DNA from: Schmidtea nova
Lineage: Eukaryota
Direction: 5' to 3'
DNA: 64,000 bases
NCBI GenBank assembly: GCA_044892505.1
Contig: CM097882.1
Span: 303,738,001 to 303,802,000 of the forward strand
Shown here one piece after another: positions 4,101-53,974 of this stretch. The position numbers and the translations under genes were made by a program. The notes beneath the pieces were generated by a model that worked only from the letters and a program-made list of their open reading frames with translations, was not told the origin of the DNA and ran no database searches. The stretch's first letter is position 1. The number at the start of each line of letters is the position of its first letter.

Positions 4101-7100
4101 CTACTAAAAAGTTACTAAGATTCTGACACTATGATAAATATGAATACCATCAAACGAGACTGGACAGGAATACATGAAAAATTAATATACTATAGAAATC
4201 ATCACACACAAAAACCTTCTCTTTAGCATATTTTCTGATATCAGCAATAATGTTGGATCTGTTTGTAGTTCCGAATCAATTTGTGGAACTTCTTGTCTGC
4301 CATTTATGGATCTTGTTTCCAGCACAATTAGTGTGTCTTCATTTGCTGCTCTCAACTTCTTCTTTAATGCTTCTAACATCTTGTTCCATGGTATCCCAAT
4401 AATATTTCAATTTCAATCTTGACAATGTTTTTCAAGCTGATAAATGTCCTCCTGACCCATCGTCATGTTATATCAACAGTAATGCTTTTCGATGTTTTGT
4501 TGGAACAATAATTAACTAATTTTCATTTTTAACACATTTTAACAGACCGTCATGGATAATATATTTATGCTTTTTTCCACTATGTATTTCCAGTCGCTCT
4601 CTTTTTTGATTGTGACTGCATTATTCCGTAATTGATTCAATTCATCATCATTTTCTTGATCATTTTGCAATTCCTTCATATTATTTGCGGTTTCCACACG
4701 CATTAGAGATGTCGGTTTGAAAGTTAATCCTGAGAAATGCACGTTCTATAAATGTGTATTAAATTTCATTGGTCATGCAGTGAGTGAAAAGGGAATTCAA
4801 ACAAATAAAAGAAAGATTTCAGAAATTGAAAATACAACTAAACCGAAGAGTGTTACAGAATTGAGATCATTCTTAGGTTTAAAGAATTATTATCGGCGGT
4901 TTATCAATAATTCTTCAATAATAGTAGCACCTTTGTATGACGCAACGACAGGGAAGGATAAAATTATTGTTTGGGCTGAAGAATATAGAAAAAGGTTTAT
5001 CAATTTAAAAAATCTGTAAAGTGAAGCGCCAATAACTTATCAAAATAATATTAATAATAACTTATAAAATTTTAAATCTGTAAATATTTACAAAAGAACA
5101 ATCTGAAATTACACAAAAAATTAAAATTTATAATACTAAAGTTTATTAAATAACATTTATGCAAATCGTGCACTGTCAATTCTCTAAATTGGAGTTCTAA
5201 CATCTTTTTTATTCACTTTATAACCTTGAATGATTATATTAATGAACCAATGTTCATAATCCTTGTATTCGATTGATTGGAACGCATCATGGAAACGAGT
5301 TTTTCGGTCGCTGATGTAATTTGTTTTTTTACAAATTAAATTTTTATTGATTTTCAGTAACACTATTTAGTGCAACATTTTCTTTAGTTATATTTGCAGA
5401 TAAACTGTCATACAATGACTGCTAATTTCGCTGGATAAAAGGATCTAAACGAAATTTCCTCTACCAAGAACTAAATTTTAAAATCATAGTACATTTGAAC
5501 CGGTTTGACTTCAGTCCTAATTTCCCTTTTATTATCTTCTCTCCTGTTTTCTTCGCCCTTGTTAGGGCTGTTAAATATTTTATCATAAGTTGGGAAGTTG
5601 ATTTGTGTGATTGCATTTTAATAATAGTGATATTATCTTATAAATGTCTTTGTATTTAGTCACGAGCTTATGTCTTTGTCCAATGAGAATAACGCATATG
5701 CTATACATGTATGTCTTTGTTTAATGTGTCTTTTTCATATGTAACTGATGCATGTGTGTCTATCGATTTATTTATTTAGTTATTTACATCTTTTAACTAA
5801 TTAAGATCTTTATTTGTCATGTTTTTATTTATTTACTTATAAAAAATACTTTAAGTGATAATTAATTGTTTAACTAATTAAAGTTTTTATTTATCATGTC
5901 TTTATTTATTTAGTTATAAAAATTCCTATTAATTATATTTTATTTTTAAAAAATCTAATAAAATTATTTAAAACTTAATAAAAAACTCAAACTGAAAAAA
6001 CTAAAATAAGAATGATAAAAAAATTATTAAATGAAATTATAACACATAAAATGAAAAACATTTAATACAAGAAACTGATAAAATAAAAACATTGATTTTT
6101 CTTTATTGTTATTCTGAAAGCTCGGAATCAGCAATTTTCCAATGACATTCGACGCGATCGGGAGTTGATGAGATTCAAGAGGAGCCGGAAATTCAGGCTA
6201 TTGATTAGAATCTGAAGGAGCAGGACAATCGAGAAATTCATTGCATTCCTTATTTGAATTTTAATCAAGCCATTATTGGAAATACTCAGAAATCTACTTT
6301 AGTCAGTGAACACTGGATTGTTGTTTACGTAAAACCGGATCCAATATATGATTTTTGATTCATTTGGATATTATTATTATTTCAATTTATTAGTTAGTAA
6401 ATTGCAATCTTTGGGTAAACCGATTGTATATAATAGAACTTGGTATCAACATCCATTCCCGAATACTTGTGGTCAACAATGCCTTGCATGGTTAAAATCT
6501 ATGTTAAAAACAATTTAGATTAATAAATTTTATTATAAATAATAACTTGATATTTTATTGATATTTACAGTTATAATGATATTGGAGGAATAATTATTAA
6601 AGAATTATGTATTATTAATGTTAATAATATTTTTAAACCAAAGTATTATATAAACAATGATTCACCTTTCTGGGCAGGAATTGGAATACCTGATCGATTG
6701 GAATAGTATGAAGGACACTATTGCTTTTGCCTAACGTGTATTATGAATGATATTGAAGATACTAGCGCTATTTTCTATGTCAGTGATCTTGATAAACTGT
6801 TGGGCCTGGCAAATTAACTTAAAAACAACAGAATGTTGGGCCCGGCGAATCGCAAGCAATCTAAAATAGAAATAAAATAAATACAAAAAATTAATAAGAA
6901 AAACAATAAAATAACCAACAAAATACCAAAAATCCACCAAGAATCGATAACAAGCAATGGAGCCTAAAATGAATTAGCAACGAATTAGAATGACAATCAA
7001 AAACTTAATCACGCAGAAAGACATTGGAATGAGTCAAACAAAAACTGACAGTGAGTGGGCGGAACACTCGGATGATACACAATCTAAAATAAAACGATTA

Positions 7101-10100
7101 AATAAAAAAAGGTAATGCATCAATAAACATAAAACTCACCGAATTAACAGTGGAAGGACAGGCATTAAAATAAAATAACCAACAAAGTCACATACATACT
7201 GAATTCTGATTGGCTAGCCGTCAACAAAAATAAGTATATATACGGCAGCCAAACTCAGTAAGTTAATGTCATTTTTACTAGTGAACTGTCAGCTTACTTG
7301 TGACAACTGTAAATCAGAAGATCTGTGTAATAGCGAAATCGAATCGGAATAAAAGTTATGAAGTATTGTAATTTGTTTTATTGTAAACCCTCATGAGTAA
7401 AAATGTATAAGGTGTCCCGAAGGTCGTTAGATCTGCCGGGATTTTGGGCCTCTCAGTGCAACACCTTCGGGTGAGGGCTGATGCGGCGAGTAGTTTAATA
7501 AAATAAATTCGGGAAGGGAGCACATAACGGACGAGACGAAACTAATTATGCGACAAAAATGTAGATAGAGAAGAGACACATGAAAGATGAGACGACACAA
7601 ACCCCATGATAAAAACATTGACAGGAAGAGAGGTTTCAGGGGACACCGTAGTAAACACCCCAGTACTTAGCTATACAAATGGAGATACTTACAATCACAA
7701 GTAATTATCAAGGGAGGGAGCGATAAATCCCCTGAGTTAGAGCTATTAAACTAATAATAATCCCGACATGCTAGTGGAATGTTTCAGGTAGTTAGTGCAG
7801 AATTGAATGATGATAATGTATGATGACTAAACATAATCGATCGGTGCGATAATAAGCATCGCTAATGAATGATCTAAATTTGACGTAGGCCGCATCATAG
7901 TGACTGTTAGATTTTCGTGGGCCGATCTCATCACCACGGCGAGTGAGATAAATATAATGAATAAACCAGATAGTGAATTTGAGTATTTCTGCAGAATGAT
8001 GAAGCCGGTAAATTATGAAATTGTATTGATGGATGTTGAGAATGCCTGAACCCATGTACGTATGAGCAACGGGAGGATAATGTCGGTGAATGGAATGATG
8101 GGGGCTGCGCAATTATTACCATATGATTGATAACTATTTTCTCAGAAGATGTTACGGAGAGCAACCCGAATATATAATTGCCAACTAAATCAACCAAATG
8201 AAATGGAACCGAACGCAGCGACGAAAATTCCGAGAAAAATCCAAGCCACAGCGAAGCGCCACATGAGGGTGTGGAGGCGAAGCCACCTAAATCTCAACAA
8301 TATGCCGAAGGCTATCCAATACCATTGCCGGAAAAGATGGAAGGGTGACCCATCTTGGCCCTTGCCAAACCCAGACAACATTTCTAAGATTCCAAAATGG
8401 TTTATTCAGTTCGACGATGGGAGTGCTATGTCCCAATGGTTGCTAACGTTTATGGATATTCCAGGGCAGGTGATACGACAGATGGGCTATATCCTCTTAG
8501 AGCGCCCCAGATGCATCCGTACCGGCGAATTTCGTCCGTACACCAATTCTCCAGTAAATCAGGATATGGAGCAGGACCAATGGGCTCCGGGAACACGGTT
8601 GTGGGAAGTCTTTATCCATAACAACCAGTTATGTTAGATTCCGTTTTCGGAGTACTTCCAAGCGGACGGCACCGGAAAAGTGGATCGAGAATGCGATCAG
8701 GAATGGGCCGAAGTCTGATGAAACATCTACGGACATATGTGTGATATATGGTGTCAGCTAAAATAATTAAATAAATAAATGGTTGAGTTCATGAGTTTTG
8801 ATGGTGAAGCATGAATGTGGTGTGAAGGGATGAATGACTGGGGGAGAAATAAATAAGACGGCGGAATAATGAACAGAAAATTGAAGTCAAATAGAAGGTG
8901 TATGATGGTGGTGTGATGACCGAATTTGATAAAGACGAATAGTTGACCCCCTGTAATTCTAGATGGACGAGATTACAGAGGACCACTGTGAAAATCGTCA
9001 ATTGAGAAGGCGTATGAAAGCGCTGGAAAGCCATTTGAAGCGACAGGAATCAGAAATAAACCTATTACGAACAACCTAATTCCACCCCGAACGGTCTAAA
9101 GATATACAACAACATCGCTACCGGACAGAGAGAGCTCTAGAAGATCAGGTCAGAGAAACCGCCGCGGTCAGATTAGAACTGAATAACTATCTACGATTGT
9201 CGACCAAGGAATTTGTTGAGCAACAATTGCGGCCCCTGATACGTGCTAGTACTTTTAGCCGATGGGCAGTGTCAACATGCACCAACAATTAAACCCAAAC
9301 CGAGGGATGCTTCACTTCTACCACGAACATTCCAGTTGAAATTTCTAAACCTGAAGGGTCAGCACGCAAAGCGGAGGAATCGCTTAGGCGCGAAACGTCA
9401 CCGAGAGAGGAGGGCGTATGCCGAAAGACTCGAAATCGAGATCGATTTGCTGAGCGGACAAACAGAGAAACAGCTCCTCAATGTTATCAATCCGGATGTT
9501 TTGCTAAATTAAATGAATGTTTCAGTATTAACAGTGTTGTCTCGTGATTGAATATAGAATGTATGAAAATTTGGTGAATGATGTAATAAATAAGTATACA
9601 CAATTCATTTGAAGGGATCGGGGGAAAATGTTAAGGGAGCGAACCATAGACGTAATTAAACTCGTGATAAAAATGGGGACCGGAATAAAACCACACAGAC
9701 CTTCTATCGGTAATGGTGGACCCGAAGATAAATGAGGGAATAGTAGCCGCAAGGTTGCTCACCTGCCTTATCATTCTACAACGTTGATACAGTATCAAGA
9801 TGATGAGTAATTAGGGACACATCATGGGTATCAGCGGGGGAAGCGTGTTTATGTTGGCGAGATTACCCTAATATTAACATCAAATAAAATCTCAGTTCAA
9901 AGACCATACCAACAAACCAGCAAGAATAAGAAAAAGAAAATACATAAATTAACATATAAATCATCATAGAACAACCAATAATGCATAGAATTTGCGTAGT
10001 GAAACATAAATAAAAATTTTATTGTGCATAAAATAATCACTAAGACTTGACTACATCACGAGTAGGTGGGCCACTCAAATTTGACAACATCACCATAACC

Positions 10101-13100
10101 AAGCACAAAATATTCATGCTAAATACATAATAAATAGCATAAAATCAAATACAATCAAACCTACAGACAGTTAATGAGAACTACGCAAATCAAATGAAAA
10201 CTATTATCAGACGATAAGACGAATTCTGATTGACTGAAGATTACTATATAAGTAAGTACTAAATCAGTCTAAAAAAACACAACCACAACACCACAACAAA
10301 AACCAACACTAAGACCAAACGTAGCCTAACTAAAGTTATATCTGACATTGTACCAAGCTAATCATTTGAAGAAACATTTGTGTGAAGGATCAATTGGAAA
10401 TAAAGGTATACTATGAGACTTTTGTTGTTATTTTAAACCCTAATGTTTTCCTTTTTATGATGGTAAAATCAATAAGGACACGTCCTGGAGGTATCCGGAT
10501 TGACGGGCGGAATGGGCCTCTCAGCACATCATCCTATGGGCGGTGGCTGATGCGGCGTAGTGGAGCCAAATGAACAGGAGAGGAGGTGCACATAGAGCAT
10601 CACTGAAAAGAATGCACATATGACATTTTCGAGATCTAACGAGTCGAAATCAAAGGGAGGATTTGGTTCAGTCCCGAAAAAATTAAGGAGATACAACAGC
10701 ATCGATATTGAGCCGAAAGAGCGTTGGAAGAACAAGCTCGAGAGACAGCCGCCGTCAGGCTAGAGCTGAATAACTATTTAAGAGCGTCGGCTCGACATTT
10801 TATCGAAAGGCAGTTGAAGCCATTGATCAGAGAGAGTACGTTCGATCGATGGGCGACTCCCGTCGGCAAGAATATCGAAACGCAAACGGAAGAGGGATTT
10901 TTAACGACGAAAGAAAAGGAGGTATCGACTATGCAACCAACCCAGGTCTTAGCCATGAAAGCGAAAAAGAGAAACCGCCTAGGAGCAAAGCGGCGCAGAG
11001 AGAGAAGAGCTTACGCGGAAAGGCTCGGCTTAGAGGTAGACCTGCTTAGCGGGTTATCCGAAAGACAATTGATTAATGTTATCAATCCAACCGTATTTCT
11101 AGGGAAATAAAGGTATTTAGAGATGACTTGACTTGTTTTATTGTTTGATGTGGAATGAATGATGAAATGGAGATATAAATAACTGATAAAGAAATTACAC
11201 AATTCATTTAACCAGTCGCCGGAAAAGGATGATAAAAAAACCCTAGACATAATTAAACATAATGAGTAATGGTAATTGGGACCGTAAAAAATCCACACAG
11301 GCTTTCTATCAGCAGTGATGAACCCGTAGATAAACGAGAGAATAGTAACCGTCAAGGTTGCTCACCTGTCTCGTCATTCTACAACGCTAGATACATTACC
11401 AACTTGATAAGTAATTAGGGACAAGTCATGGGTATCAACGGGGTGAATTTTTTTATGTTGGTGAGATTTCCCTAATGATAACATCAATAAAAATCTCAGT
11501 TTAGACACCATACCAACAAACCAGCAAAACTACAAGTGTTGAAGAAATATTTCTCGAAATTGAGATTAATTAAATAGAATTTTAAAGAAATTGAAAATGT
11601 TTCAGATAATATATCGTGTCCATATAGAGACGATAGTATGTGTAGCTATAAAGGATGTGTGTGCGGTGTTATAGATTATTTAAATCAATTAATGTTTTAT
11701 GTGTTTTATTATTAATTAAAATTATTATTATTTGATAAATATTATCAAATTATTAGTCATCAAAGTCATGACATAGTAAATAAAGACACGAGGTCATGAA
11801 CTCACATCTATTTATCATGCTACATAACAACTATAGTGACATCATATACATAAACAATCATGAAGTATGTGTGTATACATTTCCCTATCTTATCTCGATT
11901 TTGATTGGATGATTAATAAAACTTAAAACATCAGCTTTATATAGTCTATACTTGTATTTTTAGTCACTTTTAATCACAAATTTTATTAAAACTATTTTGA
12001 ATCAAAAAAAACTATTACAATGAACAATATCGATTTAAATAAATCACGAAGAGTCGCCGGAGGAGTAAACATTAATTTTATTATTTTATTTTTATCTCGT
12101 TAGAAATTATTATAGCGAATAATATTGTTGCTAATAACAGTGTTGGAGGAAACAGTGGCTAATTGAATGGAGCAAAAATTATGGGTATATTTTATATTAT
12201 TTTTACTAAATATTATATTATTATATTTTTATTTTAAATTTATCATTATTATATTATTATATCCTTATTATTTTATTTTTAATTTCAAGTTATTATTAAT
12301 GTTATTATTATTATTAATTTAAATTAATTTTTTAAAAATTTTTTATACTTAGAAAATTTTGATGCTGATATTGATGCGTCCACTATGCAGAATGCCCCCA
12401 GTTTTTCGGATGCTCCGATTAACCTTTTGATTAGTAAGTTTTATTTTACAATGATACGTCTCTTTTCATCTAAAGAGCTATGAGCGACAAACCGATACTT
12501 ACTCATTTACTCTAAGGAGTGCAATTGGCAGAAAACGTACCGGTACGTTCATACTCTGAGAAGGGTAGTCAGCCGTGAACGTACGGGTACGTTCATACTA
12601 ATCAACGGGTTAAAGGATCGAAAAAATGTAAGTTTATGCTAATGTTTTTAAAAAAAATATCTAAAGTGTTTAATCAATTGTTTTTTAATTTTTATATTTA
12701 ATATACTTTTAATATTACTTATATTAGTTTTGTAATAGTAACAATATTATTTAATGATAGTTATATAAATTGTTGTTTAAATATTCAAAAAAGAAAGGTG
12801 TGTTTTAAAATAAATAATTAATCTTGCCATTTGTATTTTTGATAAATTTAAGAGGCATAACTGGCTTACCATGCCAAGAAATCAATGCCGTCACTAGACA
12901 GCAGACGACCAAAAGTATGTTGTAGTCATTAGCAAAGCAGGCTAGAGAAATATTAAATTTTAACGTGAGGAAGTTCGATGGAAAAGTTGGTTGTGAGGCC
13001 GAACTATGGCTAAAAGATATTTCAGAATGATTGAGGATAGAAGACCAGAATTTAGTAAATGCGTTTGATTTTTTACTGACAGAGGCAGCAGCTCTATTAT

Positions 13101-16100
13101 TGGGAGCAGCCAAAGGAGAGAAAATGACAGATCTAATAGCGAAAGAATGGTTCATTGAAACGTTTACAGCAAAGAAAACAATTAAGAACAAAATCGTGGA
13201 ACTTGCCCAATTACATCAAGAAGGCGATGAGAGATTTCAAGTTTTTGAAATAAGAGTAGGAACGTTAATAAAGAGCGAATTAAACTCGTAAATGTCGAAA
13301 GAACAAATTGTACGGGATATAATTTCAAACAGAGCAAAAGACGATCGGGTAAAAGAGATATTTATGTCAGGAAAATTAACTAGTTTTGAAGAAGCAAGAA
13401 ATATGGCGAAAATTCAAGAAAAATTTGAAATGACAAATGGAAACATTTCTAATATGTGCGCTATACGAATAGAATCCTACGCATCTATTGCAAATAAATG
13501 TAAATCTAACAGGCGTCCGCAAGACAGCACGACAGAGAAACCGATATACATTCACGAAGAACGACGAGAACTAAGGTATAGATCAGCAAGACCCAAAAAT
13601 AATCAATACGTACCAATAATAGAGGAGTGAAAAACTGAGAACGAACGGTATTTTACAGGACGAAATAGTTTTTCAGAAACAGAAAGGAAGATTCCAACAG
13701 TATCACTGAAAGATATCGCCAGAAGAATATTTAACGACAGTAGGTCGAGAACGACACCAACACCAGAGAAATTAGCTCCTGGTCAGTGTTTCTGCTATGG
13801 AGAAAAAGAACATTGACGTTTTAAATGTCCAATGAAAGATAAATGTCTCATTTATTGTAAGGAAGGCCATCGATTCAGAGACTGTTATTTACTGAATAAT
13901 AGAAACAATTACAAGAAAAGAGTAGCATGTATATATGAAGAAAATTTTACAAATAATAACAACGAAGACACCGAGAATGCCTATAGTAATTACGATGAAA
14001 TGATACAAAAAATCAATAGACAAAGCGAAAAACAGAGACGATCCCGTTGCTTTCATTTCGTCAGTGGGATCGGCACAATAAAGAAGAGAGAGAATCGAAA
14101 TGAAGTCAAGAAGCTGAAGATGTACGAGACGAATAATAGAAAAAAGTGGAGTAAAATTATTTTGAATTGAACAGAAATCGATATGTTGTGGGACTCTGGA
14201 GCATCAGTATCAGTGATGAGCAAGAGCAGTTGGACAAAAATAGGAAAACGAAAGCTGACAGTAGATAATATCACATTATGTGGAGTGTTTTCATCTAGTT
14301 CGGAAAGACCACTAGGAGAAATGACGATAGAAGCAGATTGGAATGGCAGGAGGAAAAAATAAGTGTGATTGTAGTTACAGACATACGGTCGAATTTTATT
14401 GACAGCGTAGACACATGGAAAAGTTTGGAATTCTGCTGGTAGAAATCAATAATATCGAAGCATCACTGGTGGGAAAGAAATATCAGAATTCACAACGAGA
14501 AATGAAAGCGCTGGAGAGTTTGTGGAGTTATAAAAACGAAGATTTAGAAATAATTATGCGAAAATTTAGAGAAATTTTTATGGCATCAACTTTTGACTTG
14601 GGATTCACTGAAATGTTAAAACATGAGATGGATATAACAGGAGATCCAGTAAGAATACAGCCCAGAAGACAACCAATGCATCTGTAACAAAAACTAGGCG
14701 AGTTAATCATCAACTTACTGGAAGCAAAGGTCATTAGGAAATGTAAAAGTTCATGGAATGCACCGCTGGTGATAATCGCAAAGAAAGACAATTTAATTAG
14801 AATGTGTGTGGACTACAGAGGATTGAACGCCATTACAAAAAAGTGTCGTTTCCAATGCCAGATATTCGATTCCTTTTGGACTGCCTGGTAGATTCAAAGT
14901 ATTTTATTTCCATTGATCTAGGACATGCCTATTACCATGTCAGGATGGCGGAAGAAATACAAGACGTCATAGATTTTAGTACAAGGCAAGGACAATTTTG
15001 CTTCAACAGATTACCTTTTGGACTGGCAACAGCCCCAGCAACATTCCAGAGGATGATGCACTCTGCTGGAAGGAATATTGTTTAAAGGAGTGGTGGTTTA
15101 CTTAGACGATATATTGATTTATGGGAAAGACAGTAAAGAACATAATTTACGGCTAGAGGAAGTATTCAAAAGGATACAATTAGCAGGGTTGAAGATTAAT
15201 CCTGGTAAATGTGACATTTTTAAAGAAGAACTGACATTTCTGGAACATACTGTTAGTTCCGAGGGGATAAAGACGAATAACAAGAAGATCAAAGAAATTA
15301 AAGAGGCAGAGATACCGACATGCGCTAAACAATTGAGGTGGTTCCTGGGTATGACTACAGTAAAGTTCATAATTACTACAGTAAGTTCATAAAATATTAC
15401 GCAAAGATTGCTGAACCGTTGTACACAGCCACTTCCAGATGAGGGAAAATGATTATTTGTCAGAAGATTGCAATAAAAGTTTTGAATTGCTTTAAACAAA
15501 ATTATGTGAAGCCCAAATCCTGGATTATCCAAGAGTAGAGGACAAATTTATTCTGGACACAGATGCCAGTTTTGGAGCCATCGGATTCGTTCTGTGTCAA
15601 GAAAGAGGAGACCATACAGAGGTGGTTATTGCGTATGGATCAAGGCATTTAACGGCACACAAAAAAGGGTATTGTGTGACAAGGAAGGAATTACTTTCAA
15701 TACACGAATGTCTTATATTTCAGACAATATCTATATGGGAAGGCTTTCGTAGTGCGGGCAGATCACAAAGCAATAGTCTTCATGAGATACACCAAGAAAG
15801 CAATAAACCAACAGTTTCAGACATGGCTATCCAACCTTTCCGGATATGACTTCGACTTGCAATATAGGAAATGAGAAGAACATTGGAATGCAGACGGTAT
15901 CTCAAGGATCAAGGGTATGTTATGTGCTCAATGCCAGACACAACATGAAGACGCGAAAGAGGGAAAACAGAGTGAGACATATTAGTGAGACTATTAAGCA
16001 AACAAGAAGATAACGTAAGACTTCATACACATGTCAAGGGCATTACTGGGAAAAGATAATGAAGGAACTCGGAGCAAGAAGAAATTCCCTTTCAATTTGC

Positions 16101-19100
16101 TGAAGAACACAAAATTCGAAAACGGATTATTCGTGCTTGAGAAAGACGGAAAGGATATCATATTAGTACCATTATACGACACTAATACATTAGTCAACGA
16201 CATATATACAGAAATGTGTCATATTGGAGTGAAGAAATTAACAAGTTACATGAGCGATTTATTTTTTTGGCCGAATATGCAGAGAATAATTCAAAGCTGT
16301 TTAAGATCATGTGAAATATGTTGTAAATCAGAAGTTCCCAACCTTTCTGGTGCTGTGACCCATGATAACATTTGCCAATTTGTGGCGACCCAAACAATAA
16401 AATCAATAGAGTTGCACTTCAGTTTCAGCATTTTTGCAGTCAAATATTATTATTGTTGGGCCCGGTGAATCGCAAAACAATCCTAAAAAGATATAAATTA
16501 AACATAAAAATAACAATAGAATTAAATAAAATAGATTACCAACCATCAATGAAAAACAAGCAATCAGCAAGCACGGAAAACCTGAAAGAAATAGCATAAC
16601 AATACAAATAATAATAATAACATAGAACTTACCGCTAGACCGAGATGAGAGAACTGGTTGATGAGTAACAAACCAACCAAGCGAAAATAAGACCTATCAA
16701 AATGTCATCAGATAAAATAGGTACAATAAACAATAATTACCAGTGATCAATTGAGAACCACCAAAGCCTGAAATAAAAAGAATGATGAATGGTAAAAATA
16801 ACAATAAAATTATCAGAGCGAGAATGACAATTATGAACGGAACAAATGCGGAGGTGGGCCGCTCTACAAAATGTAGAAAATAAATATAAAATAAAAATCA
16901 CTGAAGCATAAATAAAAGAATAAACATCAAACTCACCGGTCTAATAGAGAAAAACACAACAATCAAAACAAATGGATAGAAAATAGACAACCGTGCTAAA
17001 TTCTGATTGGTTGACAGGCAACACAAATTAGTATAAATACTGAAGCGAAATCAGTATGAGGGTCACTTTTTTACCAGTCATTATTTTCACCGAGTGTAAT
17101 TTACCATTACTATCTGACATCTTACGAGTGATTGTGAACGTTTTGAAAATTTGTACATCAGTAGTGAAGTTGAAATAAAGGTATACTTCATTTGAATTTT
17201 TATTATTAATTGAACCCTCATAATATCTAAAATCCATAAGTTTTGTCCCGAAGATCTCGCGATCTGACGGGATACTCGGCCTCTCGGCACAACATATTCT
17301 TATATGAGGTACCGATGCGGCGAGACTATAATGTGTTAAACTGATGCGGAGGGGGAGGGGTGCACATAGCGCATTGTATAAAGGACCTATAGGCGATTGA
17401 AGTCGTGTGGATAATAATATACCATAACTATGCTCGGTGTCAATCTAGATCAGAGGGAGGGACTCTCCATGTTACCGCCGATGTCATAGTAAAAGAAACA
17501 GGCAGTGAGACCAGATAACCCAACGGGTACCCAGTAGGTTCCCTCCAGAATAAACTAGCGGACCCCATCTTCGTAACCATACCCATTGATTAAACCATTC
17601 TGAACCGAATGTACATGATCCAGTGAAATGATAAATTCCAACATACGATAACAATAACCAGTAATGCATAAACGATCACCATAATCAATAAAATGCGTGT
17701 AACGATAAGCCTAAGTAACAATCAGTGTAACGATCAGCCCACGGCGATAGGCCATAGCCAAGACATAGCGTTCGCGTAGTAACACCAACTACTACGTCAA
17801 CATGCGAATAACGATATAAAATTACAACCGATCTAACAACAATATATTGAGAGCAATCAAACTTCTTAAAGGCCGAGGATGTATGAAAATGATCGAGTGA
17901 GTAATGTAAGAGTTGAATATGTTCTCTAAGTATGATGTCCGAATGATGCTTGACTGGGTTGACTGATGAAGGAATGCATGATTGACCGACGATTTCGACT
18001 GATAATTAAACCCTGTACACGTTCATATTTAGAAAATGAAATGCCGAAGAACCCGTCCACGAGGCAACAGGAATCAACAGTGGCAAGCCATGGAATCTAC
18101 ACCTATTCCGAATACCATCAAACGGGCGGCAGAGCGATGCCTCAGAACATGGATGCGCAGACACGTGGATCCCGCAGCCCGAGCGGCCATAACGTCTTTT
18201 CGATGGCGAGTACGCTGGGAAGGCGATCCGAATTGGCTGACACAAGCCGCTAGTCCGACACGAACGAAGCCCCGATGGTTCGTACAATTCGAGGATGAGA
18301 CACAACAACCGAAATGGATAATCAGCGATCCATCCATCAACCCAGAAGCCGAACCACCGGAGAAAGCAAACCATACCTACATGCTCCCGGAAATGTAGCC
18401 ATGGACATTCAATCCAACGGAGACCAAGCGAGACTGTGGGAGGTCTTCGCATGCAACAATCGATTATGCTGGAGCCCCTGCCCCAAAATATACCTACCGA
18501 ACGGAACCGGGCGGGAGGATAGACAATTCGACCAAGACCTCAGGGAATTCACGCAAGAACTATGAACGGAGCTGTTGGAAGTGTGTTGAACATCTGTATT
18601 TTCATCTAAATAAATTGTCTAAATCTCTTGGTTGTATGAATTGGTGTTGTACTGTGTATGTTGAGTTATGCAAGGGTGAATGATGTATGAGAGACGTAAG
18701 AGAGGCACTAAGTAGTGTATACGAGAGTAGGGTAAAGTTAGAAACGGCAAGAACCACAACCAAGTATAGCTTCGGGAAATGTAGGGGAATACCAACCCGT
18801 AACGAACCCCAATCCAAAACTGATAATTTAAACCCCTTTATTTTTTTATATGAATAATACGACCCCTCGTGACTTCAGGAAAGAAGCCAAGGAGTATAAA
18901 GCTCGCGCTAAAGTGTTGGAGAGTCGATTACGCCAATTGTGTGAGGAGTATCAGCGCGTTAAAACCACATGGTTCAACCCTGAACGAGTGAGATCTATCC
19001 TACAGGCAAGATATAGAGCGGAGCGTATCGCCGAGGAGCAATCCAGGGAGACCGCAGCGGTGAGGCTAGAGCTACATAACTACCTAAAAGCCTCTACTCA

Positions 19101-22100
19101 GGAATTCATATCGCAACAATTACGTCCACTCATCCGGGCGAGTACGTTTAATCGCTGGGCCGAAACCATATCTACGACGACAAATACTCAGACCGAGGCA
19201 GAACAAGATACTACGACGCCCACCCCAGCAATATCGACGCCGCTGGAAGGCTCAAAAAGAACGAAGCGCCGAAACCGTCTAGGAGCAAAAAGACGTCGAG
19301 AACGAAGGGCTTACGCAGAGAGACTCGGTATCGAGGTCGACTTACTGAGTGGATTGACTGAACAACAACTATTAGATGTGATCAATCCGTCAATGTTATT
19401 GAACAATTAATAAATGCATATGAAATGAGTTGAATTAATTGGGTTGTCTGTGGAATGATTGAGAAAACAATAATAAAGTCACTCGAACCCATTTCATTTT
19501 ATGCTGCAGGTATCCAGAATCGAGTTATTTGCGAAAAGTTCAAGGAGCGCATAAAGGGACCAAAACAAATCCACGTAAACCTTCTATCGGTAGTGGTGGA
19601 CCCGTGAATAAACAAGGGAATAGTAACCGCGAGGTTGCTCACCTGCCTTGTCATTTCACAACGTTGGCACAGTACCAACATGATGAGTAGTTAGGGATAC
19701 ATCATGGGTGTCAGCGGGGATATATTTTTTTATGTTGGCGAGATCACCCTAACGTATAAAATCCAAACGATCTCAGTTGTCCTTCTAACCAACACACCAG
19801 CATTATAATTATGTTTTGGCTTCTAATTATCTGATTTTATTTTATTTTATACTTTTATATGCATCATATTTTTTTATTACAAATTTTGAATAATATTCAA
19901 ATTTCGAATAATATAATTGAATCATAATAATTTATCAATAAAACAATTTGTTATAAGTATATGTTTTGGCTAATATTTTTAAAAATGAATTTGCAAAGGA
20001 ATAAAATGTTTACATTATTGTAAGTGTGTATTGTGCAATGTACATTATACAATTAAGAGTCTCACACAGAGGCGTAGCTGTGATATTTTGCGCACGCGGA
20101 CGAACTATAAAATTGGCGCCTCAGCCCCCTCTCCGTTTAATCACATTTTTCTATTACATTAAATAAGGAAAACAATTTAAATTTTAATAAAACATTGTAT
20201 TTAAAGAAGCAAATTTATAGAAATTATAGTACATGACCCACTCAGTCACTGTCGTAGACTGGTTTACATAGTCTACAAAAGATTTATTTTCCTTGATTTC
20301 ACTGTTGCAAACTGGTCAATTACGCAAAATCTGTTTTTTCCAATGTTTCTCTTTCGACGCTAAGAAGAGCAAGATCGCTGAGACGATCCTGTCCCATTGA
20401 CGCACACAAATGCGACAAAATAAGTTTCAATTTGCTGAACGATCGTTCACAGCTTGCAATTGAAACTGCTATTGTTAATAAAATTTGTAATGAAATTCGC
20501 AGATTCGGAAATATGTCGTTTCCATAAAACACAATAAAACCAAGAAGATCCAAAGATGTTTCTAGTAGAACTTCATTCAGGTTGATGAGCAGCATTCTGC
20601 AATCTCCGATTTCTGTGAAAAGTTTTCTCGGCTGGCTGCAGTGGTTGGCAGGCAGCATCATCACTGTGGATGGCAGACGTATCAGATGACACGTCTGCTG
20701 AGCCGCTGCAGTGATCTTGTGACCGATTTATTACCCTTGTTTACTTATTATAATGTAACGTTGTAAGCCTCATTTTGGCGCCTTGTACTTTGGCGCCCAG
20801 GGACATATGTACCCACCCCACCCCCTAGCTATGCCTTTGGTCTCACACAATCGAAGCTATTAACTTCAAAGTTGAGGTTTTAATTTATAAAATTTGAAAA
20901 GAAAATAAAGCTGAAGAAAGCAAAAATCTTATTAATTTAATTATAGCTGTTAGAGTTGAAAAACCCAAAAAGCGTCAGTAAGAAGGCTGTGCTTGCTTCT
21001 TTCTTGCCAAATCAGAAATTCTTGGAACAGTCTTTGCAAGACCACAACGCAGATCATCTTCTGCAAAAAGTCTGCTTCTGTATTTAGATTTGATAACCCA
21101 CAATCTTGAGAAGCCTGTTTCACAAAGGTATGTTGTTGGAAAAGAAAGAAGCAGGCGCAAAACGATCTCAGACCAAACAGGATATGACTGCAAACAATTG
21201 ATCCAGAATTTGGTAATTGACATTGAAGAGAAATCATTTTTTGCTGCATCACTGGTAATCAGTTCAATGAACTCCTCTTGTGCATTCTCGGGAACATCTT
21301 CAACTCTGATGGTGAATGGACTTCTAGCAAGTGCAAATGGTGTATCAGGTAAATTCGGAAAATATCTTGAGATTTCTCCTTCAAGAATTTCAAAGTGTTC
21401 TTTGACAGAAAGTATTGTGCTATTCATTTTTTCCTGTTCAATGTCATTTTCCTCAAAAAAAGCAGATAAGTTCGACAACATGTAAATGCTATTTTCATCC
21501 AATTTTGTTTGCCAAAGTTGAAGTTTCAATTGGAATTCTCGGATCTTTTCTGACAAATCTAGGCATGTTTCATTTGGTCCTTGGAGGGATGAATTTTATT
21601 CGTTTAAGAGTGCAAAGATGTCAACCAAATAAGCAATTTCGTGAAGTTGGTTTTATTCGTCAAAAAGTGCTTCAAAGTGTGGTGTAGATTTTTGATAAAT
21701 AAACGTTTATAATTCATCACGAAGATCAAAAACACGTTTTAAAACTTTGCTTCTTGACAATCATCTCACATTAGTGTGAAATAACAGAACATTATTGCAT
21801 AAATCCAACTCACTGCAAAGTTTTGAAAACAGGCGGCTGTTTAAAGCACTAGCTTTTTTTTCTTAAAATACTGGACATCCTTGCCTGCATAGTTAGGATA
21901 TTTAGTATCAAAATGGCGTTTCAGTTTGTTGGGCTTCATGGATTCGGCTGACATAATTTCGTTGCAAATAACGCATTGTGACTTTTCAATTCCTGTTGCA
22001 ACTGTGAAAGTAAAGCCATACTTTAAAAATTCATCACTATATTTTCTTTTCCTAACACTTGTATCTCGCTTATTCATTCTCAAGGGCATGCAAATTTCAT

Positions 22101-23795
22101 CAATATAAAATTTTATAATAAAATTTTTAGTTTAGTTGACTTTTATAATTAGAGAATATGAAGCACGTGCATGAATAATTTTAATAATAGCTGAAAACAA
22201 TGTTTTGTCGCAAACAGAATATGATTTCATTTTACTTTACTAAGTACGTAGGTAATTTCGTAGAGTTGAAGTTGCAAGAATTTAAATGGCTAAAATTATT
22301 AAATTATATAGGCTCCTGACATCTGTCGAATGAATCATAGTATTGTACGTCGCTTCAGTGTTGTGACTGTAATGCCAGTGTAGTCAGAGTAGGTCAGGAG
22401 AAGTATCGCTTAAATTTAAAATGATAGTAAGGAACCACTGACTCTCGTAAAAATTATTTTTCAGAAGGTCTCAGGCGACCCCCCCCCAAACTATCACGAA
22501 CCTCTGTTGTAAATGGAAGATAATATAAGAGAAAACAAAGGAACGACTGATACCTATAATAAGTTCAGATTTCTTGGAACAATTGGTTGTAGTTATAGCC
22601 CGCATGAAACCTCAAAAAAGTTACAGATATTTATTAGTTATTATTGACCGTTTTAGAAAGATGGTTAGTCTAGCTGCACTGGAAAGACAAGATGAGAAAT
22701 CGTTGTTCAAAGCCATATTAGAGAAGTGGATATATAGATTCGGTAAACCACGAAGTCTTTTATCAGACAAAGGTAAGAATTTCGACAGCATCTTTGTGAA
22801 GACACACCTAGGAAAGTTAGGCATCGAACAACACATGAGCTCACCATACCAACAGCAATCGAATGGGCTGGTGGAAAAGACTATACGAACAGAGACTTAT
22901 TAACAACTTCTACATTCAGTGGATTAAGGGAGAGAAATTTGGTAGATTTATTCAACGTATAGAATTTTGTATCAATGCGACAACACAGAGTATAACAGGA
23001 TTCTCACCATTCGAAATTGTTTTCTGGAGGAAAATTAATCTACATTCAACACTACCACAGTCAAATTTGAACGCAACCGAAATACGCAAGCAGGTTCTAG
23101 CAAACAGTGAAAGGATAGCAAAACGAATGAAAGAAATAGACACAGATAGAAGGACGCATAGAACTTTTGAGGTAGGGGAGAAAGTATTGGTTCGGAAAGA
23201 ACCACAAAATCGGTACAAAGATGGCCTAAAGTACGACGGGCCGTTCGTAATATCAAGATTTTTGGAGCAGATCGATGGAGATTCAAAGAAACTTCGTAGG
23301 ATCGAATGGCTGAAGAGATGGGCAGATTCTTAAAGGAAGGGGGAGTTATATAAATTGCTGTTTAAATATTCAAAAAAGAAAGGTGCGTTTTAAAATAAAT
23401 AATTAATCTTGCCATTTGAATTTTTGATGAATTTAGAATGAGACATAACTATAATAGTTACTCTATAATAGTAATAAAATTGAAACTTATATTTTATATT
23501 ACTGATAAATAGTTGAAATACTTATAATACTGATAATAGCTGAATTAATTTATAATAGTGATAATATTGTTACTTATATTTTATAGTATTTATAACATTT
23601 TATAGTATTTTTAGTATTTTAGTACTGATAATGCTTTATATTAATTAGTTGAATTACTTTATAATAGTTGAAATATTTATATTTTGTAATACTAATTGTA
23701 GTGCCTCCGTCATTTATCTATTATTTATATATTAAAAGTAACTAAAACTTAATTAAATATATTTTTAATTATATAAGATTATAAAAGAAAAATAA

Positions 23796-23861
<66 letters not shown>

Positions 23862-46560: not shown

Positions 46561-46665
46561 ATAGCCACCGCTAACTTTTGGAGCAATAATTGAATTTTAA
46601 TAAACAATTTTTAGAAAATTTAGGTCATTTTGATTGTATATCAACTGCAATATTATTATAAATAC

Positions 46666-47379
46666 GGTACTTCTATACTTTCCCCTCACCTTTGATTATT
46701 ATATAACAAATCATTATAATTTATTGTAAAGGATTGTACAATACTATACCACTCAATATACATTCAAACAAATCCTTTCCTTTATTTCTCTGTCTCCATA
46801 TGAATTCACATAGATAAGAGTCGAGAAGACTTCGGTGAGTTCCCCATCTTCTTTTGTGTTTCTGTTTAGCAACATTCCACATTCCTTCCACAGTATTTGT
46901 ACATGCACCATTGTTTGGGTCAATGGAGTTTTCTGAGTGATTGACAGTTAAATGTGTATAATGCATATTTGGTATTTCAGTAATGCCATTGTATGCTGCC
47001 CATCGATCACTTACGATTGTTGTATGCAGCAAAATCGACTCCTTAATAACGGGAAGTAGTGTTGCTGCCGATCTGCCTGGTATGGCATACAAAAAACATT
47101 CCTTTGTCTCACGGCAAATCCCGCCAAATACCCATTGCTCGTTTATTTGTCTACCAATATTATACTTTCGTCGTACGAAACAACTTTCATCTATTTCAAC
47201 AGTAGTGTTCTGACCACCAATTTGGATTGGATTAGCAAGAAGGCTTTGAGCACGCATCTCCCTCATATAGTTATTCCAGTCCACAATTGTGTTTTGGCTG
47301 TAAATATTCAACTCACTTTGACAAAATGCAATTTAGACGCATGCCAAAAATCAAAGGTGGGGGGAAGTATAGAAGTACC
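46666..47379 (-). mobile_element. Merlin (IS1595/ISXO2-like) deletion derivative
   Basis: ~30-bp TIR ggtacttctatacttcccc; 8-bp TSD ATAAATAC; open 196-aa DDE core VEIDES..WVFGG..SDRWAAY..HLTVNHS..TNTVEGMW. Confidence 0.93.
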
Positions 47380-48361: not shown

Positions 48362-48409
<48 letters not shown>

Positions 48410-48984: not shown

Positions 48985-49500
48985 GAAACGATGCAGTTTA
49001 TCAAGTTGTTGGTTTAAATGAAAGTTGAAAAAAATAATTTGTTTTTAAATTATTACAATCAAAATTGTTCAAGTCTAAATTCAACAAAATATATTGGCAT
49101 AAAGGAGGATTTGATAAAAGCTGGTCTTCTAGATTATGAAATGCTGATGTGATTATTATTGATTACTTGTAACAAGAAGCAAAGAAAGAAAGGGACTTTA
49201 ATAATTTATTTACTAAAATCGTTAGACACAAATGTGTTACAGTTATTTTTGTTAATCAGAATTTATTTCATCAAGGTGGATAGCATTGAACTCGTAATTT
49301 GAATGTTAAAATATCTAGCTATTTTTAAAAATCCTAGAGATGCTACAGTTATTGAGTTTCTCGAAAGACAGACGTACCCCAATAATCATAATTTCTTGAT
49401 CAATGCATTTCAAGATGCAATTAAATTCTTAAATAGTTATATTTTTCTTGACTTTACTCACAATGCAATGATGAATTACGTGTTAAAACTGATATTTTCA
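48985..49500 (+). pseudogene. Polinton/adintovirus packaging ATPase (A32/FtsK-like) remnant
   Basis: degenerate Walker A VGLNES.K, VIIID, NLFTK..VTVIFVNQNLFHQG, LNVKYLAIFKNPRD. Confidence 0.85.
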
Positions 49501-49759
49501 ACAAAGAAGGAGCCATGGTTTATAAACAAAGTTTAATAGATGTATATTATCAATCATGTTAATGAAATCTCGAGTAAAATTTTCGCGCTTGATAAAGGCT
49601 AGAAAAACAAAGAAACTGGGAAAAATTAATAAAATTCTATCAAAGAAAACAAAGAAACCAGTTTCAAAAACCAGTTACAAACAACCGAAAAAATACTTAT
49701 TGATAATATTCCAAAGAGTAATCATATTCAAAATAATTTAAAACCAAATCCAAAACAAA

Positions 49760-50070
49760 TACATCATAGTAGTTTCCAATTTTTCAATGCATTACTTAAA
49801 GCCCCAAGTATTAGAAGAAAGAGTATTTTACAATCGTCTCCTAATTACGTTATTGATGATTACTAATGATTTTAATTAAAGTCGTTAGAGGTAAAATCCT
49901 TATAAGTGAATCAAATAGAAGGGTTTTGAACAAAATCAAGAAACCTTTGTTATAACTCGTAAAAACAAAAAATAGAAAACTAATGCGTAAATTAATATAT
50001 TAACAACAAGTAGGATTTATTGCAGCATTGTTACCATTAGTATTATCACTATTGGAAGGTTCTGGTTTAT
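49760..50070 (+). pseudogene. Polinton basic core-like gene remnant
   Basis: RRKSILQ..KPLL.LVKTKNRK..QQVGFIAALLPLVLSLL. Confidence 0.55.
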
Positions 50071-50940
50071 TAGAAAATGGTCATTAATAATGATACACTA
50101 ATTATCTCATCTAACTTGAACTTTAAATCTTCTTGTTGTAATGGAGAAGATATGGACGAACCCAAATCACAAAGCAGGTTTCGATGGAGTCAAAAAGCTA
50201 AGGAAAAATGTATCAAATTCTAAAAACAGACTCAAACTTGACTATCGGGGCAACTTGCACACAGTCTAAACAACACGATGCTGAAACGCTTCCTGACTCG
50301 AGCATATAAAACATATAGAATTAATGATTTGTGGCAAATGGATTTGATGGAAATGATTCCGTATTCAAAAATTAACAAGGGATACAAGTATATTTTAACA
50401 TAAAATGATGTTTTCAGTCGTTTTGTGAAGGCTATTCCAGTAAAATATAAATCTGCTAATGATATTGAATTTGCAATCAAAACAATGTTCAATGGTGTAC
50501 GTCAAAATAATTTACAAACTGATTTGGGTAAGTTAATTTATTTTTATTAAATATTAATTATTTATCTAGGCAAAGACTTTTACAACAGTGTTGGGCCAGC
50601 CAAATGACAAGAAATCGTCTAAAATAAATAATATATTTAGAGAATAATAATAAAATACCAGTGAATAGATGAAAGGCCAACCAAAAATCATTGAAGTCTG
50701 AAAAAGAAAATGATATAATAATGAATAATAAAAATATGACAACCTGAAAACCAGTCAAGTAGAACCAGACCACCAAAGCAAGCATGACATCACCAGAATA
50801 TGTCATAAATCATAAAATAAAGACATAAGATAAAGACATAAAATATATCAAATAAGATGAATTAAAATCAAAAACTATCAATGACTGGACATCAGAAATA
50901 ATTAGAAAATAAATACCAAACATTAATAACACAGTGACGA

Positions 50941-51092
50941 ATTCTGATTGGCCGACCCAAACTGAAAACTGTTATATAAGCAGTAGCCAAAATCAGTAGA
51001 GAGAGAATTTTTGTCATTGAGTACCAAGAATGTCACTGTAAAAACATTGAAATTGTACCTTGAGATCATCTAGCGAAATAAAAGGTATGAGT
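50941..51092 (+). promoter_or_regulatory. element D promoter, AATAAA and splice donor
   Basis: ctgattgg, TATATAA 50973, TCAGT 50993, AATAAAAG|GTATGAGT 51077-51092. Confidence 0.7.
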
Positions 51093-51156
51093 TAGTTGTT
51101 ATTCTTTAATATGATACGAGCTCTCATGATTCATATATTTAAAATCATTAAGACCA

Positions 51157-51235
51157 CATCTGGAGGGTCTCCGGACCCGTAGGGCGCCAAAGGGCCTCTC
51201 AGCGCATTACCTTCGTGGTGATGGCGGATGCGGCG
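51157..51235 (+). ncRNA. motif 1 (copy D)
   Basis: ggtc-tccg-gacc hairpin; GGCCTCT-cagc..cattacc-ttcgt-ggtgatg..ATGCGGCG. Confidence 0.5.
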
Positions 51236-51804
51236 TAGTTTTCTCGATAAACTATGGGAACGGGATGGGGGTGCACATGGTCTCGTATGTCAGAGCGAGT
51301 TATGTGGGTTAAAAGAGTTGAACTGCCAAAATAGTAATGATTGATAACCGATATATAATGGATGATATCGAAGCAAACCCACCACAATAGACCCATTCCA
51401 ACGAGGAAGCGAACATCCACCCCGAATGATGATAAATGATGATGCGATTGACCGATTAATGTGTAATGATGTCTCATAAAATCAGGAAGGTGATTCTTAG
51501 TTGACTACAACAGTTCCAAACCTTACATTGTATGATGAGTTGATGTAGTGAATGTCAAGGCATTCAAGAGTTATGTATGCGATCGATCAAAATAACCAGC
51601 GCGCTGATTAGAGTGAATCGGCACTAATACAACAGCCAATACAGTGTACTTGAATAAACAGGGAATGATGAATATGCAAATATTGATAACGAATGCTGAT
51701 GAAGGGAGGTCTGATGAGTTGTTGTGGGTGAATGACGTCGGAAGGTGAAATTCCAGCCTGATTAAATGTGATAATACAGTTATTTTCGTTCCAAGAAACT
51801 CGAC

Positions 51805-52347
51805 ATGAAAGGTCGACCTAATCTCGGTAAAGACGCATGGTGAAAGGACAATGGCACCCAGTCATTTTCAATCGTCATAGCGCTAGACGAAGCGCCAACC
51901 AAACTCTAGGACTGCGTAAGAAGGCATTTGCTCCATTGGCGTAGATCACACGATATTTCAAAGCTCTTCTCAGACCAAACAACATGGAGAATCAAACTAC
52001 GGTGGGAAGGTGACTCCCATTGGCCGCTAGTAAACCACCAACCCTTTTCAGATAAGCCAAAGTGGTTCATCAAGATGCAGGAACCCTCTGGAAAACACTG
52101 ATGGCTATTTCATTTCCAGGCGATAGCGGTGTCCGAACTCCACCGTTTGGGATACGTGATTTTGGATCGACCAAGAAACATTGTCACGGGAGAATCGATT
52201 TCCTATACAAATCTACCTACCGGAACACTAACCACGGATGAACGAAGTACCATTTGGGTGGCAGGTGTCGAATGGCAGGAAGTTTTTCTGTATAAAGGAC
52301 AATTATGCTGGAACCCAAACCCCGATTTCTATCATGCCAATCCATAA
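51805..52347 (+). pseudogene. element ORF1 (copy D; stops and a frameshift)
   Basis: RRHLLHWRRSH..LRWEGDSHW..KPKWFIK..GYVILDRP..WQEVFLYKGQLCWNP. Confidence 0.75.
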
Positions 52348-52638
52348 TCAGTGTGTAGTAAAGTTAAAAATAAATCTTCGTCTCCACATTTGCTGTATGT
52401 CGTATGTTGAGTTTGCATGAGTGGAAATATGGAAGGTAGTAATTAAGAATGACTGAAATACAATAAAAGGACTTGTAATGAGAATGATGCCTGTGTGAGT
52501 AGTTTGATGACGAGTTATAAGCAAGTTGATGAGAGAAAAATCTGGTTGGGTCATGAGTTTAACCGTTACACATGAGAGTGACGATCAATCTGTTGACTAA
52601 TAAAATCAAGGACATGACTGTTGTTTCTATTTTAGAAA

Positions 52639-53202
52639 ATGGAGTCATCAAACAAATCGACTACTGACGAGGAGGTTGAACAGATGCGTCGACGTATCTG
52701 TCTTCTAGAGGGAACGATAAATCGGCAGCGAGTAGACTTAGAGGAACTCCGACGGAGCTGGTTTTGTCCTGCCGCAGTTAAGGAGATCCAAAAGGGAAAG
52801 GATTGTTCACAGCGCGCCCTTGACGAACAAGCAATTGAATTGGCAGCGACCCGAGTAGAACTAAATCGCTGTCTTAAGACGGTGTCGGCCAACTTCATCT
52901 CTGAGTACCTAAAAGAAAAGATTAGAGCAACCACGTTCGACAGATGGGTTCCGTCACGGAGCATAAATATGGAGACTCAAACCGATAACCTGATTAGTAG
53001 CACGGTCACGACTAGTGAGATAAAAACTGGAACGTCTGTAGCCAACGCCAAGACGAAAAAGCGAAACAGATTAGGAGCGAAGCGCCGACGAGAAAGACGT
53101 GCCTATGCCAATCGAATGGGCATAGAAGTGGATTTGTTGAGTGGATTGTCAGAACGACAATTACTGAAAGTAATCAACCCAAAGGTGTTATTAGGTCAAT
53201 AA
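52639..53202 (+). CDS. element ORF2, intact 187 aa
   Basis: open ORF; coiled coil, [22 protein letters not shown]. Confidence 0.85.
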   Translation: MESSNKSTTDEEVEQMRRRICLLEGTINRQRVDLEELRRSWFCPAAVKEIQKGKDCSQRALDEQAIELAATRVELNRCLKTVSANFISEYLKEKIRATTFDRWVPSRSINMETQTDNLISSTVTTSEIKTGTSVANAKTKKRNRLGAKRRRERRAYANRMGIEVDLLSGLSERQLLKVINPKVLLGQ

Positions 53203-53379
53203 AATATAGAATTGTTTTGTGTGCGTGTAATTGTATGATGAGTAGGAGAAGTAGAACGTATGCATGAGTAAATAATCGGAAATTCACAATTCATTTAACC
53301 GGAAGACCGATGGAGATAAGTAAATAGAACCCTAGACGAAATTGAAACGGTGAATGAGTAAAAGGGGGACCGAAGTAAA

Positions 53380-53564
53380 TCCACAAAGACCTTCTATCGG
53401 TAGTGGTGGACCCGTAGATAAATGAGGGAATAGTAGCCGCAAGGTTGCTCACCTGCCTCATCATTCTACAACGTTAGATACACCACCAACATGATGAGTA
53501 GTTAGGGACACATCATGGGTATCAGCGAGGTGAATATTTTTATGTTGGTGAGATTGCCCTAATC
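53380..53564 (+). ncRNA. structured RNA motif 2 (copy D)
   Basis: atgagg/cctcat, GCAA loop, gatac/gtatc, catgatg/catcatg, ttaggg/ccctaa. Confidence 0.7.
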
Positions 53565-53974
53565 AGAACATCGAATAAAAAATCTCAGTTGTTATACTCA
53601 CAACAACAAACCAGAAACAGTAAAGGCAATGAAATTCTAAAGGAAATCAATCATTACTCGGTATTCTCTCAATTCAAAGCGGCTGATGTCGAAAGATTTA
53701 ATCCAAAATTAAGAGATAGTCTGAAAAAAATATTTTGTTCACCAGGGTTGTTAGATGTTACGAGAACATCTTCTAAGTTGCTTGAAAAAACATTTTCATT
53801 AACTGAATTCATATTCAAAAATTTATTAATACCACAATTATGTTTAATATTTAAACAAACCTTTCGGCATTGAATCAAACAATTTCAAAACAATTTCTCA
53901 TAAGAATTCAATATCATAAATACAAATCGAATTAATTTTTTATTTGAAATTATATTTTAAAATTTAAAAACTTA

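Follow-up and report, generated by a model that had tools for sequence, protein, structure and literature searches.

Solo long terminal repeats of a giant Burro-type element in Schmidtea nova with two conserved open reading frames and two covarying RNA structures

Four related units at the locus

The stretch of Schmidtea nova DNA analysed here (64,000 nucleotides; GenBank assembly GCA_044892505.1, contig CM097882.1, positions 303,738,001 to 303,802,000 of the forward strand; referred to as the window, in whose numbering coordinates are given) contains four related units that are almost certainly solo long terminal repeats (LTRs) of a giant Ty3/Gypsy retroelement and that carry, in different states of decay, two open reading frames (ORFs), ORF1 and ORF2, and two RNA structures, motif 1 and motif 2. 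A preliminary description, made from the sequence alone, had placed four units with exact 4-bp target site duplications (TSDs) here, and all of them are present at the positions given for them:

LTR A, 6834..9922, plus strand: 3,089 bp, TSD AGAA, nested inside B
LTR B, 6798..11526, plus strand: parts 6798-6833 and 9927-11526, TSD AAAC
LTR C, 16454..19802, plus strand: 3,349 bp, TSD TTAT, within a hAT-like element
LTR D, 50589..53616, plus strand: 3,028 bp, TSD ACAG

A is inserted 36 bp into B, which measures about 1.64 kb without it. All four share a 3' end of 250-300 bp with 77-83% identity, and their likeness is not a matter of chance because genome searches with this 3' end and with ORF2 yielded 2,136 and 9,229 candidates, respectively, both being first-look figures and not copy numbers. 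Relatives of A are 76-90% identical, with 4-bp TSDs, typical of solo LTRs, at six A-type loci. Some details of the preliminary description require correction. The 6-bp inverted TG..CA ends are in fact an imperfect inverted repeat, TGTTGG...CCAGCA, matched at five of six positions, and D terminates in AGAA instead of CA. Only A, C and D show the full order of elements in the cassette; in B, ORF1 is absent and ORF2 is truncated at its 5' end (10664-11107). The ORF1 frame is disrupted in A, C and D, whereas that of ORF2 is disrupted in A and remains open in both C and D:

ORF1 of A, 8149-8712, plus strand: premature stop
ORF1 of C, 18036-18565, plus strand: frame break
ORF1 remnant of D, 51805..52344, plus strand: in-frame stops
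ORF2 of C, 18850..19410, plus strand: 186 amino acids (aa), open frame; the 12 nt next to the ATG lack a YAG
ORF2 of D, 52639..53202, plus strand: 187 aa, open, acceptor 3 nt ahead of the ATG, AATAAA over the stop

The full-length element

When the genome was searched for exact matches to defined patterns, with the reversed pattern as control, the LTR end followed by the primer site was found 135 times and the fixed 3' junction preceding the LTR start 136 times; both controls gave 0. The primer site starts 6 nt past the LTR and is an 18-nt complement of the host tRNA-Pro(UGG). A tandem array of this primer tRNA with a 308-bp period begins at G000:C1:459609706, and the genome holds 899 matches to the tRNA pattern. 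Forty kilobases were retrieved at each of five primer loci, and in four of them paired LTRs with one shared 4-bp TSD (CGAT, CTCT, CAAT and AAAG) flank primer site, gag and pol, the very arrangement that had been proposed as a check; these elements are 28.8-29.5 kb long, and their two LTRs are 99.7-100% identical. At the fifth locus, the 3' junction falls beyond the 40 kb retrieved. The polyprotein frame is open over 5,087 codons in one element and broken in the other three, and Pfam domains follow each other in the order zinc knuckles, fusion glycoprotein, protease, reverse transcriptase, RNase H, integrase and ankyrin, with the env domain in frame between zinc knuckles and protease (PF24664, E 4.8e-71). 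A TRAF/MATH protein is encoded separately downstream of the polyprotein and a RING protein in another separate ORF (L057:4522-4977). Two more ORFs precede the 3' LTR (L059:4867-6054, 396 codons, and 6125-6652, 176 codons), neither with a Pfam family above cut-off. The 3' junction is fixed, but only a short purine run stands where a polypurine tract would be expected.

The young paired elements belong to another subfamily than the copies in the window. The window copies are tied to them by ORF homology, by the common RNA motifs, by the internal ORFs behind D-type LTRs, and by one A-type and one B-like LTR that also adjoin primer sites. D shares 85-90% identity with LTRs that adjoin a primer site and are followed by Burro-type ORFs, and D-type LTRs continue into the RING ORF and polyprotein of the young elements at 65-92% identity. 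Among 30 loci retrieved with the 3' end of D, three run on into the common primer-site-like sequence; these are decayed and have no partner LTR within 40-50 kb. The window itself holds no Burro-type internal region, its polyprotein matches (27-44%) stemming from other elements. Primer site, junctions and paired LTRs together support the proposal of the preliminary description, according to which a giant Ty3/Gypsy element left these units behind as solo LTRs; this element is of Burro type and reaches 29.5 kb.

Burro/GYPSM1 are giant Gypsy elements of dugesiid planarians with polyproteins of 4,873 and 5,140 aa (PMC6431247). The element described here resembles them in its size of about 30 kb, the 5,087-codon polyprotein, CCHC knuckles, in-frame env between gag and pol, ankyrins and a MATH/TRAF accessory ORF (PMC6431247), and differs in that TRAF/MATH lies downstream of pol. 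BIR, BCL2-like, SUMO-like and dUTPase-like domains, some of which were detected by HHpred in PMC6431247, did not appear in our Pfam scan at E values up to 0.5. The element is of an already described type, being matched to Burro by description and architecture.

ORF1 and ORF2 as protein-coding genes

In the young elements, both ORFs are intact and encode proteins of 211 aa (ORF1) and 187 aa (ORF2). Pairwise comparison by the NG86 method, which had been suggested earlier as a check, gave low dN/dS ratios, with medians of 0.20 for ORF1, from the 107 usable pairs out of 153, and 0.12 for ORF2, from 93 out of 210, values that are favoured by the restriction of the alignments to open-frame copies. 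Another 20 primer-adjacent LTRs, taken as a second sample, comprised 15 of full size, three short ones and two without a recognisable start; in all 15 full-size LTRs, both frames span at least 150 codons. Identity between subfamilies is just 26-42% for the two ORFs. We consider it very probable that ORF1 and ORF2 are protein-coding genes under purifying selection.

They represent two protein families without detected relatives in the libraries searched. Three word-index searches, covering near lengths only, returned no homologue of either protein, an ORF1 profile had 0 matches among 1.84 billion representatives, the Atlas search gave no usable match, the PDB sequence search nothing below E 0.15, and no metagenome locus was found. 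These negatives do not demonstrate absence because the libraries are poor in flatworm repeats. Structure prediction gave an ORF1 model with a pLDDT of 52 (best fold match Z 3.5, best viral match E 0.12) and an ORF2 model with a pTM of 0.30 (best fold match E 3.3). ORF2 is predicted to consist of two long helices, a disordered linker and an arginine-rich helix. A bZIP assignment of ORF2 was rejected, with bZIP_1 matching four of 21 proteins, the best with E 0.0012 and 19.3 bits against a cut-off of 27.6, and the model showing short helices past the basic helix, where a leucine zipper would be required.

A TQT motif, known as an LC8 anchor (PMC10046861), is present in 20 of 21 ORF2 proteins, where it lies within the variable linker of low pLDDT. 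Docking of ORF2 to host LC8 gave weak support (0.42 vs 0.17 for the best control, with a pLDDT of 42-44 for the partner and contacts agreeing to at least 50%); of 78 solved pairs 51 attain the mark applied, as do 2 of 108 mismatched ones, passes at or below 0.60 are more often wrong unless the pair was likely beforehand, and a pass may reflect likeness to solved complexes. Intronless dynein light chain genes are clustered in the genome at G000:C2 5.2-6.7 Mb, 20.1-20.3 Mb and 42-45 Mb, with 61 matches genome-wide.

Promoter, splice and polyadenylation signals

The promoter and first polyadenylation signal of the preliminary description were found again; splice donor, acceptors and a polyadenylation signal for each ORF had been overlooked:

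D, 50944..51000, plus strand: CCAAT-like box, TATA (50973) and Inr (50993), sequence motifs only
A, 7206/7235/7255, plus strand: CCAAT-like box/TATA/Inr, sequence motifs only
B, 10226/10245/10264, plus strand: the same, sequence motifs only
C, 17003/17032/17051, plus strand: the same, sequence motifs only
D 51077..51090, B 10399 and C 17174, plus strand: first AATAAA with a predicted splice donor fused to it (AATAAAAG, then GTATG)

The first AATAAA follows the Inr by 93 (A), 135 (B), 123 (C) and 84 nt (D). In A, this signal (7348) is present and the donor GGT is absent. We examined 45 primer-adjacent LTRs, 39 of which had a locatable motif 1, and in 35 of these 39 the donor directly follows AATAAA. 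A strict acceptor, made up of a pyrimidine tract and YAG, stands ahead of the ATG of ORF1 in 13 of 15 and that of ORF2 in 19 of 21 cases, compared with 105 of 1,301 other ATGs. AWTAAA is found no more than 120 nt downstream of ORF1 in 13 of 15 copies (background, 893 of 2,643 windows) and overlaps the ORF2 stop in 21/21. The positions of the splice and polyadenylation signals are kept across subfamilies despite the low identity of the ORFs. From one donor and two acceptors, the LTR would thus probably give rise to two short spliced mRNAs, each with its own poly(A) site, and the conservation of the signals suggests that the ORFs reside in a long U5 and not in a long R. No donor-to-acceptor joint was seen among the matches listed in contigs of four sequencing runs, a result that weighs neither way, the kind of contig being undefined and two runs containing tagmentation adaptors.

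Two RNA structures

Motif 1 consists of two hairpins, and motif 2 is a structure of about 250 nt with ten helices including a kissing loop:

Motif 1, plus strand: D 51155..51235; A about 7410-7488; B 10478-10557; C 17243-17322
Motif 2, plus strand: D 53366..53616; A 9676-9922; B 11278-11526; C 19556-19802

In the motif 1 alignment (29 rows, one of them mis-trimmed and devoid of the 3' arm), 97.5% of the cells are paired and 51 cells show double changes, a number reached by 0 of 500 shuffles. For motif 2, 97.4% of the cells are paired and 16 of 57 pairs show changes on either side, which none of 500 shuffles attained; its kissing helix is a 7-bp loop-loop pairing in which one pair changed on both sides. 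These shuffle tests overstate significance because the structures were derived from the same alignments and the copies are related.

Neither motif has a match in Rfam. A supposed resemblance between motif 1 and the eIF4G-binding J-K domain of the EMCV internal ribosome entry site (IRES) (PMC3113573, PMC13018306, PMC8476729) was rejected as homology. Four scans gave no match to any Rfam IRES, type II (RF00210) included, the positive control scoring 151.9 bits. With strict scoring, one of 29 copies stood at 4/300 shuffles and most at the null level; with loose gaps and six chosen copies, one stood at 0/300 and two at 6/300; and a motif 1 profile did not rank the viral J-K sequence above shuffles. 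Hammerhead, HDV-like and group I/II identities were dismissed by eye and by Rfam scans. Pattern and plasmid searches yielded no useful match. A distant version of motif 2 (L060:7163-7432, minus strand) sits at another LTR end (CAACA), suggesting that the structure is common to another family.

LTRs without ORFs and divergence of the ORF block

Two further features had escaped the preliminary description, namely mobile variants that lack both ORFs and an excess divergence of the ORF block. Both ORFs are missing in six of the 45 primer-adjacent LTRs, which are 1.5-1.7 kb long and have at least three different breakpoints, and all six retain the promoter and both RNA motifs. Four have an equally short partner LTR of 99.8-99.9% identity plus a TSD and have therefore been copied recently; for the other two, the partner end was not matched by the search pattern. 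Since elements devoid of both ORFs were copied recently with their motifs kept, the ORFs are dispensable in cis.

Of 21 elements (17 windows and four whole elements), 11 offered both a window of pol and an unbroken ORF1, the remainder being affected by deletions, by other inserts or by disruption of ORF1. Among these 11, the synonymous difference is 0.162 for pol (0.125-0.196), compared with 0.585 for ORF1 (55 pairs) and 0.587 for ORF2 (45 pairs). In both samples, identity is 88-100% at the ends of the LTR and 52-67% in its middle, with pol at about 95% among young elements. The LTR middle and ORF1 move as one block (rho 0.79 and 0.84) that is weakly linked to U3 (0.04-0.28), and the most diverged part is non-coding (LTR positions 1001-1500). 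An apparent co-evolution of U3 and ORF2, seen in 16 LTRs (rho 0.67-0.71), was dropped after a further 15 gave rho values of only 0.16-0.34. The ORF block may have diverged through balancing selection, through re-acquisition of sequence from older LTRs or through faster mutation.

Genomic surroundings

The host DNA has a GC content of 31%. A host gene for a glycosyl hydrolase 47 protein has exons at 649-1230 and 38405-38743 on the minus strand, and A, B and C lie between them in antisense orientation. C is part of a nested stack (13292-22903), in which an unrelated gypsy pol with integrase is split by the hAT-like element that is in turn split by C. The window also contains an ISXO2-like transposase fragment (46721-47266, minus strand) and a further decayed gypsy element (59168-63848, minus strand). 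Elsewhere, three C-type ORF1 copies (G000:C1:513911628, 513917610 and 513923592) form a tandem array with LTR sequence at an exact period of 5,982 bp.

Discussion

Taken together, it is likely that the units are solo LTRs with conserved genes that would be expressed from short spliced mRNAs and whose products would act in trans as regulators of the long RNA of the element. Transcription would start about 420 nt into the LTR, and the donor fused to the first AATAAA may block early cleavage, by analogy to U1 in foamy viruses. This donor would be spliced to an acceptor just ahead of either ATG, and the mRNA would end at its own poly(A) site within the 2.7-kb U5. Because both mRNAs would be made inside U5, a solo LTR would constitute a self-contained two-gene unit that requires no internal region. 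ORF1 and ORF2 proteins from any LTR could then act in trans so that the unspliced 26-kb RNA passes these signals and is made or exported. Motif 1, present in unspliced RNA only, might be a packaging signal or a response element, and primer-site function may be served by motif 2. That ORF2, with its coiled coil, TQT motif and arginine-rich helix, and ORF1 are regulators resembling the Rev/Tat class is an analogy to which we give slightly less than an even chance. A further-reaching model, which we regard as speculative and rather doubtful, sees U5 as a swappable two-gene module, with thousands of solo LTRs supplying Rev/Tat-like factors in trans and forming a reservoir of ancient cassettes that are re-acquired by active elements between two fixed RNA structures.

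Several observations weigh against this interpretation. The regulatory role rests on motifs and architecture, with no homologue or fold match behind it, and transcripts, splice joints and poly(A) sites are all predicted from signals in the DNA. Counts such as 21/21 are not independent events because the copies are related (about four subfamilies), and C is devoid of an ORF2 acceptor. In motif 1, eight of 21 pairs changed on both sides, which 53 of 500 shuffles matched and which is therefore not above shuffles. Saturation of dS removed 42 of 153 ORF1 pairs (four more had a dS of 0.1 or less) and 117 of 210 ORF2 pairs. The mobility of ORF-less elements fits merely optional genes as well. Finally, no full-length element was found for the A or C subfamily, A being represented by one LTR at a primer site, and a pair of C-type LTRs proved to be an inverted duplication and not an element.

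Accessory genes overlapping the LTR are known from complex retroviruses (MMTV sag, HIV nef and foamy bel2), where they are located in U3. The planarian element shares with these viruses the coding capacity of the LTR and, by prediction, spliced subgenomic mRNAs from one donor; unlike sag, nef and bel2, its two ORFs lie past the start site, have an acceptor and a poly(A) signal each, and belong to a Ty3/Gypsy element. We found no likeness in sequence or fold between ORF1 or ORF2 and the retroviral LTR-borne accessory proteins. In foamy virus, a splice donor controls the choice of the LTR poly(A) site, and donor and signal are present in both LTRs (PMC3694450), as they are here; the foamy virus donor is located upstream of the signal, whereas ours follows AATAAA by 1-2 nt, and a corresponding mechanism is predicted. 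Ogre elements also have LTRs of several kilobases and extra ORFs without known function, which are situated in the internal region and not in the LTR (PMC6431247). LTR-borne ORFs were not found in the literature searched, including PMC11410931 and PMC13309565; the section text of PMC6431247 mentions neither ORFs in the LTR nor a splice design or RNA structures, and Grohme 2018 with supplements, Jurka 2007, Repbase, Dfam and the figure of PMC6431247, which were outside the scope, may show them. What would be new here are two orphan LTR-borne ORFs and two covarying RNA structures; the Burro-type family is known.

The divergence of the ORF block could be neutral, the interior being homogenised by recombination and the LTR middles re-acquired from older lineages or solo LTRs. 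We rate this nearly as probable as its opposite, and it is compatible with trans regulation by LTR-encoded proteins. Pol differences are indeed star-like (0.125-0.196), ORF1 differences span 0.07-0.68, and near-identical ORF1 pairs occur at ordinary pol distance. The text of PMC10787394 covered here describes the same pattern for crapaud of Podospora, with diverged variants of non-coding LTRs of about 400 bp on a homogenised internal region and no mention of ORFs; in the element studied here, by contrast, the diverged block holds selected genes, and the open frames in re-acquired blocks (all 15 full-size LTRs) are unexplained without selection.

A different function of the two proteins, as antagonists of host defence such as chromatin silencing by PIWI/piRNA, with an ORF block diversifying under host pressure, appears rather unlikely. 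A fly piRNA silencing complex uses LC8 and TQT. Burro is repressed by PIWI, as judged from its de-repression upon smedwi-2 knock-down (PMC8532177), and the drop of the ORF block to 52-67% identity next to a pol of about 95% in two independent samples would agree with such a conflict; selection on the proteins is, however, purifying overall and not positive, and divergence is greatest in the non-coding part of the LTR. It is improbable that the genomic RNA ends near the far LTR end, which would place ORFs and motifs in a very long R and make motif 2 a structure for 3'-end processing or stabilisation: A, B and D do have AATAAA about 40 nt from the LTR end, and the overlying donor may silence the first signal, but a terminal AWTAAA exists in none of the 39 primer-adjacent LTRs, 35 of which kept the first signal. 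That the units are standalone non-autonomous elements is contradicted by pairs flanking gag-pol with one TSD, by the counts of primer sites and 3' junctions and by D-type copies leading into the same internal ORFs, which makes it exceedingly improbable even with 9,229 first-look candidates against 135 exact primer-site junctions, an excess of solo LTRs being expected from LTR-LTR recombination.

Solo LTRs are normally regarded as non-coding promoter debris. Those of S. nova hold a pair of genes under selection, together with a full set of splice and poly(A) signals, at thousands of sites, in a group of animals whose giant elements are piRNA targets. The natural deletion series separates RNA motifs kept in cis from dispensable ORFs, and the whole yields a testable model for the regulation of a 26-kb retroelement RNA, in which thousands of scattered LTRs would likely function as small gene units with spliced transcripts and control the element remotely.

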